Assembly (NCBI GenBank): GCA_036734545.1
Contig: DAIMYJ010000001.1
Location: forward strand, 8,875-68,775
From: Chitinophagales bacterium
Lineage (GTDB): Bacteria; Bacteroidota; Bacteroidia; Chitinophagales; BACL12
Length of the DNA: 59,901 bases
Direction: 5' to 3'
This document shows, piece by piece, positions 53,638-59,793 of this stretch. How positions within the stretch are numbered: the first letter of the stretch is position 1; each line of letters opens with the position of its first letter. The position numbers and the translations under genes are program-made. The notes beneath the pieces are model-generated. The model did not search any database, was not told the DNA's origin, and worked only from the letters and a program-made list of their open reading frames with translations.

Positions 53638-54129
53638 TTAGCCGATCAGATTTTGCAGAATGGAGTTGATGGTGCGGTTGCTCTTATTGTTACCGCCCAG
53701 CAGACCGGTGAGTGATTGCAGGACACCGCCGCCTTTGCCGTTCAATGCGCTGAGTGCTTCATTGATGTTCAGTCCGCCGTGCTGTGCCGTCTTCACTTTT
53801 GCATTCAGCATATTCAGGATGATGGGCAGGGCTGTGGTGGTGAGTTTCTCCGCCGCATCGGCCGAAATATTGAGCCGGCTTTGCAATTGGGTCTTTACGG
53901 GCGTTTGAATACGTTGGACCACATCGTGGTCTTGTGCAGTCTCGGCACCCGACAACATCTCGCGGAGTGCATAGATATTGCCTTTCCGTGCCTGTTGCAT
54001 GATGGTATTCACGACGGTCTGGGAGGTAACGGAAGACACCTCTCGACTATCGAGATCGATGAGTTCCGGGATACCCCGGCCAATTCCCTGCAGATGCTCT
54101 TCTGCGAGGCTTAGCAATTGAGTAAGCAT
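53638..54129 (-). CDS. Hypothetical protein (DUF937-like, tentative)
   Basis: 163-aa helical ORF with a Gly-rich C-terminal region (GKGGGVLQSLTGLLGGNNK). The family name is unverified. Confidence 0.55.
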   Translation of the reverse strand: MLTQLLSLAEEHLQGIGRGIPELIDLDSREVSSVTSQTVVNTIMQQARKGNIYALREMLSGAETAQDHDVVQRIQTPVKTQLQSRLNISADAAEKLTTTALPIILNMLNAKVKTAQHGGLNINEALSALNGKGGGVLQSLTGLLGGNNKSNRTINSILQNLIG

Positions 54130-54223: not shown

Positions 54224-55903
54224 TTATTTGCGCATCATCCGCTCTTCGAACCAGAACTGTTTGGTATCCAGCCTGAAGGTGCGGGCATCGACGCCGGGGA
54301 TGAAGGTTTGCTGCCATTCCGTTCCGGGGTTGCACCATACCCAGGCACCGTCGGCGTTGGCGAAGCGGAGGGGCATGTTAAAGCCTTCGACATCGGCCAC
54401 CCAGCGGTATTCGAATTGTACCCCGCCGTTCTCTTCCCGGAGCCGGTATTCCAGCTTCGGCAGATCGGCATGGCGCAGATATTGGTCGAACACCTTGGAG
54501 AAGTCCTTCCCTGCCTTGCGGGAGATGTATTGTTCGATCTGCTGGGTTGTAACGGTTTGCATGCCGAAATCCTTCTGTATGCCTCTGATGATGCTCCACC
54601 ACAAGGCATCGTTATCTGTAAGGGTGCGCAGCATGTGCAGCATGACGGCTCCTTTCTGATACATATCGCCGCTGCCTTCGTTGTTCACGCCATAGTCGCC
54701 GATGATGGGGCGGTCGTTAGACACCATACGGCGCATGGCTTTCACGTAGTCATCGGCAGTTTTACGGCCGTGCATACATTCCACGTATATCGCCTCGGAG
54801 TAGGTACAGAATCCTTCATGGATCCACATATCTGCGAGGTCCTGCATGCTCACGTGGTTGCCCCACCACTCGTGGCCGGTCTCGTGGATGATGATATAGT
54901 CGAAGTCCAGGCCTATGCCGGAGAAGTCAAATCCGGCGTATCCGGTCTTGTATCGGTTACCGTAGGCTATCGCGCCCTGGTGTTCCATGCCGAGGTAAGG
55001 TGTTTCCACGAGGGCAAAGCCATCGTTTTTGAACGGGTAAGGGCCGAGGAACTGTTCAAAGCAGGTAAGCATAGGTTTCACCTGCGTGAATTGTTTGCGT
55101 GCGCGGTCCAGGTTGTATTCCATCACATAATAATCCAGCGGGAGCACGGTGCCGTCGGCCATGGTATGCGACTCACTGAAATGGGCGTATTTACCGATAT
55201 TGAGGGTGACATTGTAGTTATTGATGGGATAGCTCATTTCCCAGGTGGTGGCCTTCATGCCTGCGCGCACTGTTTTTTCGGCGATCTGATCGCCATTAGC
55301 GATAGCCATCAGCGTATCCGGGGCGATGAGGGTGATGGTCATGCGTTCAGGTTCATCGCTGAGGTGGTCTTTGTTCGGCCACCACACGCTGGCACCGAGT
55401 CCCTGACAGGACACTGCCACCCAGGGGTTGCCTTTATCGTCGCGATCCCAGCTCATACCGCCATCCCACGGCGGGTTTTTGGCCTCGCGGGGGGTACCTG
55501 CATAGTCTACCGTGAATTTTCCTTTCGTGCCTTTGGTGACGGTGCGCGGGAAGTCCACAAAAACGGCGGCTGCCTCACGAGAGTAGCTGAGCGGTTTGCC
55601 GTTGTAGGTGATCGCAGAGATGGTGAGTTCGGGGAACAGGTCTATCTGCAGTCGCGAGAAATCGGCCATAGCCTCGAAGGAGATGTCGTTGGAGCCTTTG
55701 ATGCTGCGGGTGGGGATATCCACTTCCACGGTCAGGTCATAGGCCTGCACATCATAGCAGGTGCGCTCCGGGCGGAGGCTACCGCGCAGGGTATCCGCGA
55801 GGGTGTATGGCGATTGTTTATCGAATAATTGCGCCGATAAATGATGCACAGAACCGATAAACATCAGGCATAAGGCAGCTGCGGATAACAGGGATCTTGT
55901 CAT
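54224..55903 (-). CDS. M1-family zinc metallopeptidase (aminopeptidase N-like), secreted
   Basis: Signal peptide MTRSLLSAAALCLMFIGSVHHLSAQ. HETGHEWWGN plus WIHEGFCTYSE (HExxH-18-E). A GAMEN-like region YLGMEHQG lies upstream. Confidence 0.9.
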   Translation of the reverse strand: MTRSLLSAAALCLMFIGSVHHLSAQLFDKQSPYTLADTLRGSLRPERTCYDVQAYDLTVEVDIPTRSIKGSNDISFEAMADFSRLQIDLFPELTISAITYNGKPLSYSREAAAVFVDFPRTVTKGTKGKFTVDYAGTPREAKNPPWDGGMSWDRDDKGNPWVAVSCQGLGASVWWPNKDHLSDEPERMTITLIAPDTLMAIANGDQIAEKTVRAGMKATTWEMSYPINNYNVTLNIGKYAHFSESHTMADGTVLPLDYYVMEYNLDRARKQFTQVKPMLTCFEQFLGPYPFKNDGFALVETPYLGMEHQGAIAYGNRYKTGYAGFDFSGIGLDFDYIIIHETGHEWWGNHVSMQDLADMWIHEGFCTYSEAIYVECMHGRKTADDYVKAMRRMVSNDRPIIGDYGVNNEGSGDMYQKGAVMLHMLRTLTDNDALWWSIIRGIQKDFGMQTVTTQQIEQYISRKAGKDFSKVFDQYLRHADLPKLEYRLREENGGVQFEYRWVADVEGFNMPLRFANADGAWVWCNPGTEWQQTFIPGVDARTFRLDTKQFWFEERMMRK

Positions 55904-56104
55904 AGGTGGTCTATAGGATCACAATAATAACGGCTTTCCCGTGAGCAAGGTTAAACATTTAACCCACATTAACGTCACAAACAGATGGACAAGGAATGTG
56001 CCGAAGTCCGAAAACCCCGAATATTTGTCGGAACGGAGTTCTAAAAACCTCTTAACTTTACCTGACATAACACAATATTCACATACGCTTAACCCGCTAT
56101 TTAC

Positions 56105-56506
56105 ATGCATCGCTCCTCTCTATTGGCATCGATCATAGCCCTTTTAGTGATCACCGGCATACAAGGATGCAGCAGTCTTCCCGGCGAAGGCGGCACCAGC
56201 ACCATACAGGGCAAGATCTTCGTGGAACGGTATAATGAGTTTGGCACTTTATATCAGGAATACTATGGCGGTGAGATCCGCGTATACATAGTATACGGCG
56301 ACAATGCAGGGTTTGATGATGAAACACGCACCAGTTACGATGGCACATATAAGTTCCCTTTTCTGAGAAAGGGCAATTACACGATCTTCGCTTACAGCGA
56401 CTGCCTCACCTGTGAAGGCTCTGTGGAGGTGCGTATGACCGAGGTGGAGATCACGGAAAACAATCAGATCGTAGAAGTGCCGGATATCGTAATTGAAAGT
56501 CGCTGA
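56105..56506 (+). CDS. Small lipoprotein with a carboxypeptidase-regulatory-like beta-sandwich (first gene of the VTC operon)
   Basis: Lipobox ITGIQGC. IQGKIFV...TSYDGTYKFPFLRKGNYTIFAY resembles a CarboxypepD_reg-type fold. Confidence 0.7.
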   Translation: MHRSSLLASIIALLVITGIQGCSSLPGEGGTSTIQGKIFVERYNEFGTLYQEYYGGEIRVYIVYGDNAGFDDETRTSYDGTYKFPFLRKGNYTIFAYSDCLTCEGSVEVRMTEVEITENNQIVEVPDIVIESR

Positions 56507-57259
56507 TTGCAATCCCTCGAACACATATTACAAGCGCTCCAGCCCATTTCCCTGAAGGAGATGGACAAGGTGGAGTTGATGAACCGGAAGGATACCAAGT
56601 ATTTTTTCGATCGTAGGAAGCTCCATGACATCCTGGAAGAGTTACAATCGGGTTATAAGGTATTGGAGATCGGCGGACACAGGCTATTCACGTATCGTAA
56701 TATTTACTTTGACACGCCCGGCTTCGATTGTTACACTGCGCATCACAACAAACGTGTGAACCGGTATAAGATCCGCATCCGGCAGTATGTGGAGAGCGAC
56801 CTCAATTTCCTGGAGATCAAGTTCAAGATCAATACAGGTCGTACGATCAAATCGCGTATCCGCATTCCGGAGTTCAATGCTGAGCTCACACCTGAAGCCA
56901 AGGCCTTCATCGCCACGCATACCCCTTATGATCCCGACGCACTGCGTGCCACGTTGCTGAATGACTTCCGCCGTTTCACGCTGGTGAGCAACCGGATGAA
57001 CGAGCGCGCGACCATTGATACTGATCTGCGTTTTCAAACCGATGGCGAAGAAAAGGTTTTGCGCAACCTGTGTATTGCAGAACTCAAGCTCGACAGCAGC
57101 TCTTCAGGTTCGCCCTTTAAGATCGCCATGCGCGAGAACCTATGTCCGGAGACGCGTATCAGCAAGTATAGCGTAGGTGCCGCATTCATGTATGATCATC
57201 TGAAACAGAATAATTTCAAATTCAAGAAACTCCAAATCAATCGCATAGAAAATGTTTAA
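56507..57259 (+). CDS. VTC-domain (polyphosphate-polymerase-like, triphosphate-tunnel fold) protein
   Basis: A TTG at 56507 directly abuts the upstream TGA; the first ATG is at 56561. Motifs LMNRKDTKYFF, YRNIYFDTPGFDCY, RYKIRIRQY, FLEIKFKI and CIAELKLD match bacterial VTC-domain proteins as I remember them. Confidence 0.8.
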   Translation: MQSLEHILQALQPISLKEMDKVELMNRKDTKYFFDRRKLHDILEELQSGYKVLEIGGHRLFTYRNIYFDTPGFDCYTAHHNKRVNRYKIRIRQYVESDLNFLEIKFKINTGRTIKSRIRIPEFNAELTPEAKAFIATHTPYDPDALRATLLNDFRRFTLVSNRMNERATIDTDLRFQTDGEEKVLRNLCIAELKLDSSSSGSPFKIAMRENLCPETRISKYSVGAAFMYDHLKQNNFKFKKLQINRIENV

Positions 57260-57932
57260 CCTATTACTTCAATCCGAAGAGGATGCTAAATTCCTCGACC
57301 TTAAATTCTTTGACGAGGATATTTACGATCTGGTCCTGCGTTCGCTGTTCAATTTCATCATCGTGTTCATTCTGGTGAAGTTCATTTACCGCAGTGACCG
57401 AAAAAATAAGAACTATGCGTTCAGTTTCTATATCTTCAGCATGCTGGTATTCTTCCTGTGCTATCTGCTTTCCGGCATCAAGCTGGAGATGGGATTTGCA
57501 TTCGGGTTGTTTGCCATCTTCAGTATCCTCCGCTATCGGACGATCAGTATACCGATGAAGGAAATGACCTATTTGTTCCTGGTGATCGCTGTAGCCGTTA
57601 TCAATGCGCTTACCACAAAAAAGGTATCCTTCGTTGAATTGTTGTTCACCAACTTCTCACTGGTAGCTGCCACCTATTTCCTGGAGCGCCTGTGGTATCG
57701 CGAAGGGCTGAGTGAACAGATCATCGAATACGAAAAGATCGAGAATATCAAGCCCGACAGGCGTCAGGAGATGCTTGCCGACCTGAAGAACCGGACCGGA
57801 CTCGACATACGCTCTTTTGAGATCCTGACCACCGATTTTCTGCGGGATATGGCCAGGGTGCGTGTATACTTTAAAGCAAAGACCACGGCAGAAGGAGAAG
57901 ATCCGTCCGGTTTTGATGATGACGATGACTAA
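57252..57932 (+). CDS. DUF4956-like polytopic membrane protein
   Basis: 8-nt overlap with the VTC gene (ATGTTTAA). About five TM helices are followed by a soluble C-terminal region with the acidic tail EGEDPSGFDDDDD. Confidence 0.75.
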   Translation: MFNLLLQSEEDAKFLDLKFFDEDIYDLVLRSLFNFIIVFILVKFIYRSDRKNKNYAFSFYIFSMLVFFLCYLLSGIKLEMGFAFGLFAIFSILRYRTISIPMKEMTYLFLVIAVAVINALTTKKVSFVELLFTNFSLVAATYFLERLWYREGLSEQIIEYEKIENIKPDRRQEMLADLKNRTGLDIRSFEILTTDFLRDMARVRVYFKAKTTAEGEDPSGFDDDDD

Positions 57933-58557
57933 ACACGTCCTTACCCTATTGGCCTTTCTGGCGATCATCGGATCTGCGGTTGCGCAGCATACGGATGGCG
58001 CTGTGTGGACCTATACCGGGGTTAAGTTTGAACCTATCAAGGATATATCGGTAGAGGTTGCCGAGGAGTTTCGATACAATGCCTCTGTTGCCGACCTGTA
58101 TCAGTCGAATTCCCATGCCCAGATAAGTTACCGGTTCACGAAAAAGATCAAGGCGGCCGGAGAATACCGTTATTCGGTGCGCGACGGCGGCAACACCCAT
58201 CGCTGGGGCTTCGGGCTGTCGTTCAGGGAAGGGTTCGGCGATCTGGATATCGGTTTTCGCACCAAGTATCAATACAGCACTGCACCTGACGGTGGTGAAG
58301 GGACTGCGTGGCGAAACAAATTTTCTGTTGACTATACCCTCAATAAAGACTGGGCTGTGTTCGGATCGGGTGAGATCTTTTATACGCTGAGCAACGAACT
58401 GGATCAGTTCGACAACCAGCGATATGAGGCCGGAATAGATTTTTCTCCAAACAAACACCACGACCTGACTGTTTCGTATATCTATGATCATGAATTTCAT
58501 GTCAACGAACCGCAGCGCATGTCCATTCTCAGCATCGGCTACGTATATTCCTTTTAA
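57925..58557 (+). CDS. Outer-membrane beta-barrel-like protein (DUF2490-like, tentative)
   Basis: 8-nt overlap with the upstream gene (ATGACTAA). Signal peptide MTKHVLTLLAFLAIIGSAVAQ. Alternating aromatic/polar strands. C-terminal GYVYSF beta-signal. Confidence 0.7.
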   Translation: MTKHVLTLLAFLAIIGSAVAQHTDGAVWTYTGVKFEPIKDISVEVAEEFRYNASVADLYQSNSHAQISYRFTKKIKAAGEYRYSVRDGGNTHRWGFGLSFREGFGDLDIGFRTKYQYSTAPDGGEGTAWRNKFSVDYTLNKDWAVFGSGEIFYTLSNELDQFDNQRYEAGIDFSPNKHHDLTVSYIYDHEFHVNEPQRMSILSIGYVYSF

Positions 58558-58813
58558 AGCGCTTTTAACAGGTGCCTTGCTGATCCTGCATTTGCAGGCC
58601 TTCAGCCAGATCGCCCCATATCAGCCGACAAGTGATACACTCACCATCCCGATCGCATTTATGCGCATGCTGTCGCTGACATCTGAGGTCAGCCCCGACA
58701 GCTCCAATACCGTATTGATCCCCCTACCCGCTTACACACAGGGTTTGTTTTGCGATCTGGAAGACGCCGTGAACAGAAATCGGCGATTGCGCATAGACCT
58801 GGGTGTTAAATAA
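58499..58813 (+). CDS. Questionable small secreted ORF overlapping the 3' end of the barrel gene
   Basis: There is no in-frame ATG downstream of the barrel stop. In-frame ATGs at 58484/58490/58499 would give a signal-like ALLTGALLILHLQAFSQ segment. No family recognised. Confidence 0.25.
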   Translation: MSTNRSACPFSASATYIPFKALLTGALLILHLQAFSQIAPYQPTSDTLTIPIAFMRMLSLTSEVSPDSSNTVLIPLPAYTQGLFCDLEDAVNRNRRLRIDLGVK

Positions 58814-58887
58814 CCCATGGCGGTGACCAAAATCATTCAGTGGTCGGCAGTGTTGTTCTACATTTGCAGGCAATCAAACTCCGGAAC

Positions 58888-59793
58888 ATGAGATCTATAT
58901 CGCGGTTTACCATCAGCGACTGGTTTAAGGGCTTACAGGACCACATCTGCACCCAATTAGAGAAAACCGATGGTAAGGGTGTGTTCGAGGAGGAGTTATG
59001 GCAACGCCCCGGCGGCGGTGGCGGCAGGACCCGCATCATCCATAATGCGAATATCATTGAAAAAGGCGGTGTGAATTTTTCTGAGGTGCACGGCATCTTA
59101 CCCGCCCGGATAGCCAATGCCCTGGAGGTGCACGGACATGATTTTTTTGCCACCGGCGTATCCATTGTATTACATCCGTTCAGTCCGATGGTGCCCATCA
59201 TACACATGAACGTGCGGTATTTTGAGGTGAGCAGCGGCGAAAAATGGTTTGGCGGCGGCATCGACCTAACGCCGATCTATATTGATAAAGCGCAGGCACG
59301 GTATTTTCACGAGCAATTGCAAAACGTTTGCGACGCGCATCATCCTGCTTATTACAAGGAATTTAAAAAGTGGGCCGATGACTATTTCTACATCAAGCAT
59401 CGTCAGGAGACGCGCGGCATTGGCGGAATTTTCTTTGACCGCTTAGTAGAGACCGAGCAGATCACACTGGCACAGCGTTTTCATTTCGTGCAGGACGTTG
59501 GGAATCTGTTTGCCGATGTGTATACACATCTCATGCAGCTCAACAAGGACATCCCTTACGGTAAAAATGAAAAGCAATTCCAGCTCCTGCGCAGAGGACG
59601 TTATGCAGAGTTCAACCTGGTGTATGACAAAGGCACAAAGTTCGGGCTGGAAACGGACGGGCGCACGGAATCCATCCTGATGAGCCTTCCGCCGGAAGCC
59701 AGCTGGGTGTACAATTTCCAACCGCAACCCGGCAGTCGTGAAGAACAAACGCAGGCGCTGCTAAAAAAAGGTGTTGACTGGATCTATCTCTGA
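58888..59793 (+). CDS. hemF: Oxygen-dependent coproporphyrinogen III oxidase
   Basis: Motifs RPGGGGGRTRI, GVNFSEVHG, HPFSPMVPIIHMNVRYFE, WFGGGIDLTP and RGIGGIFFD are typical of HemF. The ATG at 58888 is preferred. Confidence 0.92.
   Translation: MRSISRFTISDWFKGLQDHICTQLEKTDGKGVFEEELWQRPGGGGGRTRIIHNANIIEKGGVNFSEVHGILPARIANALEVHGHDFFATGVSIVLHPFSPMVPIIHMNVRYFEVSSGEKWFGGGIDLTPIYIDKAQARYFHEQLQNVCDAHHPAYYKEFKKWADDYFYIKHRQETRGIGGIFFDRLVETEQITLAQRFHFVQDVGNLFADVYTHLMQLNKDIPYGKNEKQFQLLRRGRYAEFNLVYDKGTKFGLETDGRTESILMSLPPEASWVYNFQPQPGSREEQTQALLKKGVDWIYL

Follow-up and report, generated by a model that had tools for sequence, protein, structure and literature searches.

In bacteria, polyphosphate (polyP) is ascribed to the kinases PPK1 and PPK2 and is regarded as an intracellular store. 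The PPK fold is unrelated to that of VTC and the PPK products stay in the cytoplasm. The Gram-negative synthase-dependent exopolymer systems, such as AlgE/AlgK for alginate, PelB/PelC for Pel and PgaA/PgaB for poly-N-acetylglucosamine (PNAG), have a polymerase at the inner membrane whose activity is coupled to translocation, and add to it a lipoprotein and a barrel in the outer membrane. In the eukaryotic VTC complex (yeast Vtc4/Vtc3/Vtc1; PDB 8I6V, 7YTJ and 3G3Q), the tunnel domain is soluble and has a membrane protein as its partner. In Gram-positive bacteria, genes for a CotH kinase, a 'poly-phosphate polymerase' and a DUF4956 protein lie beside the pel operons of streptococci, clostridia and bifidobacteria (bioRxiv 10.1101/768473, PMC7112168; bioRxiv 10.1101/2024.04.20.589940). 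The same trio is also found in a Clostridium perfringens pathogenicity locus. Here a related gene cluster was analysed in a 59,901-nucleotide (nt) stretch of a Chitinophagales bacterium genome (GenBank GCA_036734545.1, contig DAIMYJ010000001.1, positions 8,875 to 68,775), hereafter called the window. The cluster contains genes for a small lipoprotein (g1), a VTC-type tunnel protein (g2), a DUF4956 membrane protein (g3) and a DUF2490 outer-membrane barrel (g4), possibly followed by a fifth gene (g5). PolyP synthesis coupled to translocation through the envelope is the best explanation of this module and is held here with moderate confidence; export and its direction are what we infer.

The cluster shares with the eukaryotic VTC complex the catalytic fold, eight of nine ligands including the activity-defining Lys, and the pairing of a soluble tunnel domain with a membrane protein, which suggests coupled synthesis and translocation. 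It differs from it in several respects. The bacterial g2 is a separate polypeptide that carries neither an SPX domain nor a transmembrane (TM) segment; its membrane partner is a DUF4956 protein (five TM helices and an ACT-like domain) unrelated to the three-helix Vtc1-type domain; Phe stands in place of Tyr359; the tunnel holds more charges; and the bacterial cluster also encodes a lipoprotein and an outer-membrane barrel. The Gram-positive cluster found beside pel (CotH, 'poly-phosphate polymerase', DUF4956 and DUF4832; SIR_1594, SIR_1593 and the adjacent DUF4956 gene in Streptococcus intermedius) has the same VTC/DUF4956 core and the same link to extracytoplasmic CotH proteins. The Bacteroidota module, in contrast, is not located beside pel and adds the DUF2490 barrel and the lipoprotein, which fits a diderm envelope. 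With the synthase-dependent systems the logic is shared, but no component is homologous, the polymer would be inorganic, and no TPR scaffold, glycosyltransferase or cyclic di-GMP receptor is encoded in the cluster. The predicted product, polyP made from a nucleoside triphosphate, is the same as that of PPK1 and PPK2; no PPK gene was found within the cluster.

The g2 gene (56507-57259, + strand) encodes a protein of 250 amino acids (aa) when read from a TTG codon. The protein has no signal peptide and matched the VTC family (PF09359) with an E-value of 1.1e-27 and 97.6 bits (cut-off 23) over profile positions 1-235, in agreement with the VTC assignment of the first-pass annotation, which had been made from the DNA letters and the open reading frames (ORFs). 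The best homologues of g2 and g3 came from Chitinophagales metagenome bins and were named 'polyphosphate polymerase domain-containing protein' and 'DUF4956 domain-containing protein', respectively. The VTC profile retrieved 7,924 representatives at 50% identity. The best 150 of these were all stand-alone proteins of about 250 aa, likewise without SPX domain or TM segment, and none was fused to DUF4956 or to another domain. An AlphaFold2 model of g2, built on 25 homologues, was confident, with a predicted local distance difference test (pLDDT) of 92. In a Foldseek search with this model, yeast Vtc4 was ranked first (8i6v_E, 5.4e-13; 3g3r and 3g3q, about 2e-12), followed by the Escherichia coli triphosphatase YgiF (5a60, 2.8e-9) and then by CYTH cyclase-like proteins. 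Searches of PDB sequences with phmmer and profiles gave no match or a weak partial match to Vtc2. Since sequence profiles barely reach the yeast proteins, the comparison was made by the fold search and by hhalign of the g2 family profile against Vtc4 residues 183-482 (sequence verified against 8i6v_E). The alignment covered 204 columns, with an E-value of 2e-4 and a probability of 46%. It paired K31 with K200, R90 with R264, R92 with R266, K105 with K281, F154 with Y359, R156 with R361, E192 with E426, S219 with S457 and K220 with K458.

In the cryo-EM structure, the triphosphate and Mn are bound by these Vtc4 residues, mutants of which make less polyP in yeast; K458 is the sole such ligand that differs in the inactive Vtc2 and Vtc3, where it is Ile or Leu (bioRxiv 10.1101/2023.01.27.525886). 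Conservation was determined in 193 members of the g2 family, the most distant at about 42% identity. Of the nine ligands of triphosphate and Mn, eight are identical in g2 and invariant in the 193 sequences, so that the catalytic residues lining the tunnel, whose conservation had been left to be checked, are indeed retained. The Lys corresponding to K458 (K220) lies within an invariant SKY motif and is present in 193/193. Position 154, aligned with Y359, is Phe in 152 sequences and Tyr in 41. By these alignments, g2 is a candidate polyphosphate polymerase. The first strand of g2 reads RxDxK, like RxTxK in Vtc4. In the triphosphate tunnel metalloenzyme (TTM) hydrolases this motif is ExExK. Alternatively, g2 could be a YgiF-like tunnel hydrolase that cleaves, in the cytoplasm, external tripolyphosphate or polyP taken in through the barrel and DUF4956. 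Tunnel hydrolases are the next-best structural matches (5a60) and the invariant D29 retains one acidic position of the hydrolase motif. However, they are outranked by Vtc4 in the fold search, Pfam gives VTC and not CYTH, the Lys equivalent to K458 never varies, and where the hydrolase motif begins with an acidic residue g2 has Arg, as Vtc4 does. Uptake and hydrolysis are very unlikely to be the function of the module.

The g3 gene (57252-57932, + strand, 226 aa) encodes the inner-membrane partner. Its product covered the full DUF4956 profile (PF16316; E 2.3e-49, 167.8 bits, cut-off 30.6), as had been expected from the sequence. The structural model is of moderate quality (pLDDT 68) and contains helices at residues 24-48, 53-74, 80-96, 102-120 and 127-151. 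A beta-alpha-beta-beta domain occupies residues 154-208, C-terminal to the five TM helices. This agrees with the previously noted five or so TM helices and soluble C-terminal region. The positive-inside rule, applied by reading, predicts that loops 1 and 3 (YRSDRKNKNY and RYRTISIPMKE) and the C-terminal domain face the cytoplasm. Weak fold matches of the soluble domain include AcuB, NikR and the small subunit of acetohydroxyacid synthase, which we take to be ACT-domain types. This ACT-like reading fits the S. intermedius DUF4956 homologue, for which an 'intracellular ACT domain' has been described (bioRxiv 10.1101/2024.04.20.589940). The hairpin GFAFGLFAxFSILRYRT...EMTYLF is the most conserved stretch in the whole module, and the motifs GFAFG..F..RYRT and MTYLF are invariant. 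DUF4956 was also considered as a homologue of the yeast Vtc1 channel. This was rejected: hhalign gave a probability of 0.3% (Vtc1 verified against 8i6v_A) and the Foldseek matches obtained with the g3 model included no VTC chain. The analogy with VTC drawn in the first-pass annotation is thus retained as a functional likeness, and homology of the membrane partner is dropped. The g3 protein ends in a poly-Asp tail (window 57918-57929), which is also present in Chitinophagales relatives.

The g4 gene (57925-58557, + strand, 210 aa, or 213 aa from the ATG at 57916) encodes a protein with a signal peptide ending in AVAQ and a C-terminus reading GYVYSF, with a terminal aromatic residue. These features had suggested an outer-membrane protein, and Pfam identified it as a DUF2490 outer-membrane barrel (PF10677; E 5.2e-18, 65.9 bits, cut-off 29.8). 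About 11-12 amphipathic strands were counted. Across 25 homologues, no substitution is seen at R82, R130 or R166, and R50, R93 and E150 are almost fully conserved. The conserved basic residues occupy lumen-facing positions, in alternation with lipid-facing ones. When the g4 profile was compared with the PDB, the best match, short of significance, was the 12-stranded oligogalacturonate porin KdgM (4fqe). KdgM/NanC and OprP/OprO are likewise small barrels with lumen-facing basic residues suited to polyanions. The DUF2490 family (TC 1.B.81) is listed as a putative porin with no function assigned. Lys-rich C-terminal tails such as KRPKKKKKKDKK were found in 8 of 57 DUF2490 homologues (for instance L015:6593-7312, L016:1754-2500 and L018:4244-5029; L numbers designate the loci compared below). 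The poly-Asp tail of g3 or these Lys-rich tails could interact with a polyanion or with the basic tunnel.

The g1 gene (56105-56506, + strand, 133 aa) encodes a small protein whose signal peptide ends in ITGIQGC. In each of the 43 homologues recovered for g1, the signal peptide likewise closes with Cys, and the motif GxGG(T/S)SxIxGK is conserved after it; these proteins are lipoproteins. The match of g1 to CarboxypepD_reg (PF13620; E 1.5e-3, 19.3 bits) is under the 32.3-bit Pfam cut-off. In the g1 family (22 members), weak matches to CarboxypepD_reg were obtained for 10 (best E 4.4e-6) and to SdrD_B for 13. A longer homologue (L009) exceeds the CarboxypepD_reg cut-off with 39.3 bits, and the best PDB sequence match of g1 is the transthyretin-like domain of NOMO (E 8e-4). 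A transthyretin-like sandwich is therefore a reasonable but soft prediction. In other words, the lipoprotein claimed for g1 stands on a conserved lipobox Cys, and the CarboxypepD_reg-like sandwich claimed with it stays below the Pfam cut-off. In many g1 homologues (e.g. L029, L034 and L059), the lipobox Cys is directly followed by Lys and acidic residues (C-SKEEGEGG, C-KKEAGDGG), a pattern that resembles the surface-lipoprotein export signal of Bacteroidota. The g1 protein of the window reads CSSLPGEGG (56168-56200), a poorer fit to this signal. Taken together, the absence of a signal peptide in g2, the five TM helices of g3, the conserved lipobox Cys of g1, and the signal peptide and terminal aromatic residue of g4 agree with the four cellular locations proposed initially.

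To compare the locus across genomes, one genome per species was scanned with a DUF4956 alignment. At least 580 relatives were confirmed, and the best 80 loci were analysed. They came mostly from Bacteroidota (Chitinophagales, Flavobacteriales, Bacteroidales and Marinilabiliales), with single Neomarinimicrobiota and Lentisphaeria bins. Partner genes were detected with iterated hidden Markov models (HMMs) made from the window proteins. A VTC gene adjoins the DUF4956 gene in 74/80 loci, DUF2490 is present at 57/80 and the lipoprotein at 43/80. The order g1-g2-g3-g4 was found in 34 loci, g2-g3-g4 in 15, g2-g3-g1 with or without g4 in five and g1-g4-g2-g3 in two, while 16 loci have g2-g3 only. Because the same genes stay together while their order is shuffled, there is good evidence from gene order that the module is a functional unit. 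The barrel and the lipoprotein are thus syntenic with the VTC/DUF4956 pair across Bacteroidota, which answers the doubt first attached to these two genes. A chance adjacency of four genes with no common function, which has nothing in its favour except the lack of experiments, is effectively refuted by this synteny: the adjacency recurs over 80 species-level genomes and several orders, in three gene orders and with tight junctions.

Several of the barrel-less loci end at contig edges. Replacement of DUF2490 by another outer-membrane component was considered and rejected: the complete barrel-less loci are flanked by housekeeping genes with no relation to the module, for an M20 peptidase, TauE, citrate lyase, phosphoenolpyruvate (PEP) carboxylase and DAHP synthase. 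Two other recurrent neighbours, cytidine deaminase and the pyruvate dehydrogenase E1 alpha subunit, identified by sequence motifs only, were judged to reflect lineage gene order and were not retained as members of the module. In two Bacteroides/Bacteroidales bins (L023 and L063), the DUF4956 gene stands by itself beside a gene for an M20 peptidase, and the 6 kb around it contain no VTC gene; the VTC/DUF4956 pair is therefore not obligatory. A DUF4956 and DUF2490 pair is also present in Bacteroides thetaiotaomicron (BT3498-99). In the iron stimulon table of this species the change of BT3498-99 is not significant (p 0.175) and was not used. One locus assigned to a 'Methanobacteriota archaeon' bin (L013, PBNL01000005.1) has the same VTC/DUF4956 context as a Crocinitomicaceae bin (L017), and the contig is probably mis-binned. 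On a short Flavobacteriales contig (L021:946-1712), the VTC gene is split in two ORFs by a frameshift or a sequencing error.

Recurrent partners of the module were found by clustering all neighbouring ORFs at the 80 loci. A gene of the CotH kinase family is present in 22/80 loci (e.g. L065:2608-4803, L057:2594-4147, L037:1840-5232, L040:7298-8686 and L059:7361-9397); it lies within 53 nt of the cluster edge in 20 of them and on the same strand in 16. The barrel is present in 21 of these 22 loci. All 11 CotH representatives scored above the Pfam cut-off. Most carry a C-terminal sorting domain for type IX secretion, in many cases accompanied by lamin-tail domains, and two have an N-terminal sequence read as a lipobox. 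Because of these sorting domains or lipoboxes, the CotH kinases are considered extracytoplasmic. Since the CotH association spans monoderm and diderm bacteria, it points to a use of the product of the VTC/DUF4956 module outside the cytoplasm. A second recurrent partner, secreted and about 137 aa long, has YD/RHS-like repeats; it is encoded just upstream of the VTC gene in 19/80 loci and sometimes between the lipoprotein and VTC genes (e.g. L009:4776-5204, L020:4828-5235 and L075:4816-5229). Neither a CotH gene nor the repeat protein gene was found in the window or in the 10 kb downstream of it, so that the link to CotH was out of reach of the first-pass annotation.

The mechanism proposed from these data is as follows. 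The basic tunnel of the cytoplasmic g2 would bind ATP together with a divalent metal, and the enzyme would add the terminal phosphate to a growing polyP chain. It would dock on an oligomer of g3, whose RYRT hairpin, on the cytoplasmic face, and TM helices would carry the nascent chain over the inner membrane, with the ACT-like domain acting as a regulatory or docking module. The Arg-lined DUF2490 barrel and the g1 lipoprotein would then pass the polymer through the outer membrane or anchor it there. The outcome would be periplasmic, surface-bound or released polyP, made by an enzyme class other than PPK1/PPK2. In many relatives, the secreted CotH kinases would use or modify this product. A further suggestion, that exported polyP is the phosphoryl donor or energy source that replaces ATP for CotH-family kinases outside the cell, is speculative and improbable as it stands.

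Several observations weigh against synthesis coupled to export. Some concern the chemistry of g2. With an hhalign probability of only 46%, the residue mapping to Vtc4 has moderate confidence and leans partly on the agreement of fold and Pfam. The residue at the position of Tyr359 is Phe in most of the bacterial sequences (152/193), and the Y359F substitution lowers polyP in yeast (bioRxiv 10.1101/2023.01.27.525886). The bacterial tunnel also has extra invariant charges that are absent from Vtc4 (D29, E166, R86, K88 and K107), and its chemistry may differ from that of Vtc4. The Phe and the extra charges are consistent with a different product, such as a phosphate or short oligophosphate added onto an exported glycan, lipid or protein, or an end-modified polymer, with the membrane proteins serving for export. 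The Gram-positive homologues are located inside pel polysaccharide operons, and the extracellular polyP of Bacillus cereus, which according to the authors of that work has no Vtc4 homologue, resists exopolyphosphatase, indicating that atypical polymers exist. However, no conserved glycosyltransferase or lipid-carrier gene is found beside the Bacteroidota cluster, and the Vtc4 triphosphate and metal ligands are matched (8/9). A product of this kind is considered quite unlikely.

Other observations concern the route through the envelope. DUF4956 is not a homologue of the Vtc1 channel, and with a mediocre model of g3 (pLDDT 68) a pore is only proposed. The likeness of g4 to KdgM is not significant (E 0.06). 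DUF2490 proteins are small barrels for which a buried charge network has been reported in 238 members, and such a network could block the lumen rather than line a pore. At about 16 full-length loci, neither the barrel nor the lipoprotein accompanies the VTC/DUF4956 pair at this position. In the S. intermedius preprint, the guess was that the polymer remains cytoplasmic (bioRxiv 10.1101/2024.04.20.589940). Only annotation-level mentions of bacterial VTC, DUF4956 and DUF2490 proteins were found in the literature, with no experimental work on any bacterial member. Part of this evidence would suit a system of phosphate capture and storage, in which the barrel and lipoprotein import phosphate or another anion to the periplasm, polyP remains in the cytoplasm, and DUF4956 only tethers and regulates the polymerase at the membrane via its ACT-like domain. 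The polymerase residues of g2, a DUF4956 protein with an ACT-like regulatory fold and without channel homology, the retention favoured for S. intermedius, and the barrel-less pairs are all compatible with it. Against it, a purely cytoplasmic store does not explain the linkage with extracytoplasmic CotH proteins in monoderms and diderms. Yeast avoids free cytosolic polyP by coupling synthesis to translocation, and no other part of the module is as conserved as the TM region of DUF4956, which is unusual for a simple anchor. Capture and storage is thus regarded as unlikely, and synthesis coupled to translocation is kept as the best explanation.

The ORF list confirmed four co-directional genes on the + strand and a possible fifth, as first described, as well as their junctions. 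The gap between g1 and g2 is 0 nt, the TGA at 56504-56506 lying directly before the TTG at 56507-56509; both genes share one reading frame and are parted by this single TGA (56504-56509). The overlap of g2 and g3 is 8 nt (ATGTTTAA at 57252-57259), as is that of g3 and g4 (ATGACTAA at 57925-57932). Public gene calls on contigs with an identical operon start g2 at an internal ATG (56561, giving 232 aa) and g4 at the ATG at 57916, which results in a 17-nt overlap with g3. For g2, comparison with homologues supported the TTG at 56507 as a better start than the ATG at 56561, because homologues also conserve residues 7-18, which precede that ATG (I14 and L16 at ≥90%), and because the 0-nt junction recurs in relatives. 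This stop-start junction was found in nine related genomes, often with a TTG or GTG start, and a junction of -1 or -4 nt in twelve further relatives, giving 21 loci with a junction of 0, -1 or -4 nt. The possible g5 gene (58484-58813, + strand, start at 58484 or 58499) would encode a small secreted protein of 104-109 aa. It has no Pfam match, is called on some public contigs only, gene callers being inconsistent, and its homologues were found only in the three closest genomes, directly after g4 (L001:7311-7691, L002:7306-7641 and L003:7153-7536). These homologues carry signal peptides and share, in their C-terminal part, the conserved motif YTQGxFCxxEDxxNRxRxxRIDxG. No NCBIfam model matched any of the five proteins.

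The cluster is preceded by a divergent gene for an M1 aminopeptidase (54224-55903, - strand) and followed by a gene for an oxygen-dependent coproporphyrinogen oxidase (58840-59793). The 201-nt intergenic region between the M1 peptidase gene and g1 (55904..56104, given for the + strand) is the probable promoter region of the cluster because it is the only sizeable non-coding gap before it. A sigma-70 promoter scan and an intrinsic terminator scan gave no signal above shuffles. By eye only, TAACTTTA at 56053-56060 comes close to the -7 motif of Bacteroidota. A 163-aa ORF further upstream (53638-54129, - strand) has a sub-threshold DUF937 match (E 2e-4) and is unrelated to the cluster.

The VTC/DUF4956 pair already carries annotation, and earlier work pointed it out in Gram-positive bacteria. 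For its Bacteroidota form, with DUF2490, a lipoprotein and CotH proteins secreted by the type IX system, no description was found in the literature. In a 2026 preprint, about 100 µM extracellular polyP was reported in B. cereus, where it persists in a ppk1 ppk2 mutant; according to its authors, the pathway is unknown and the export mechanism awaits the identity of the non-PPK source. The B. cereus genome has no Vtc4 homologue, as stated in that preprint, and this report of PPK-independent extracellular polyP in the B. cereus group means that the field is seeking a system of this kind. The family described here is large, with its 7,924 VTC representatives and a partner in at least 580 species-level genomes, and is linked to genes for membrane, outer-membrane and secreted kinase proteins. 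Genetically tractable carriers exist, such as B. thetaiotaomicron with BT3498-99. The module raises the question of whether bacteria have a second, eukaryote-like polyP synthase, and that of the route by which a polyanion would pass over two membranes. It also raises the question of the phosphoryl donor of secreted CotH kinases; if exported polyP were this donor, the module would also be a candidate route for the PPK-independent extracellular polyP that is now being reported in bacteria.

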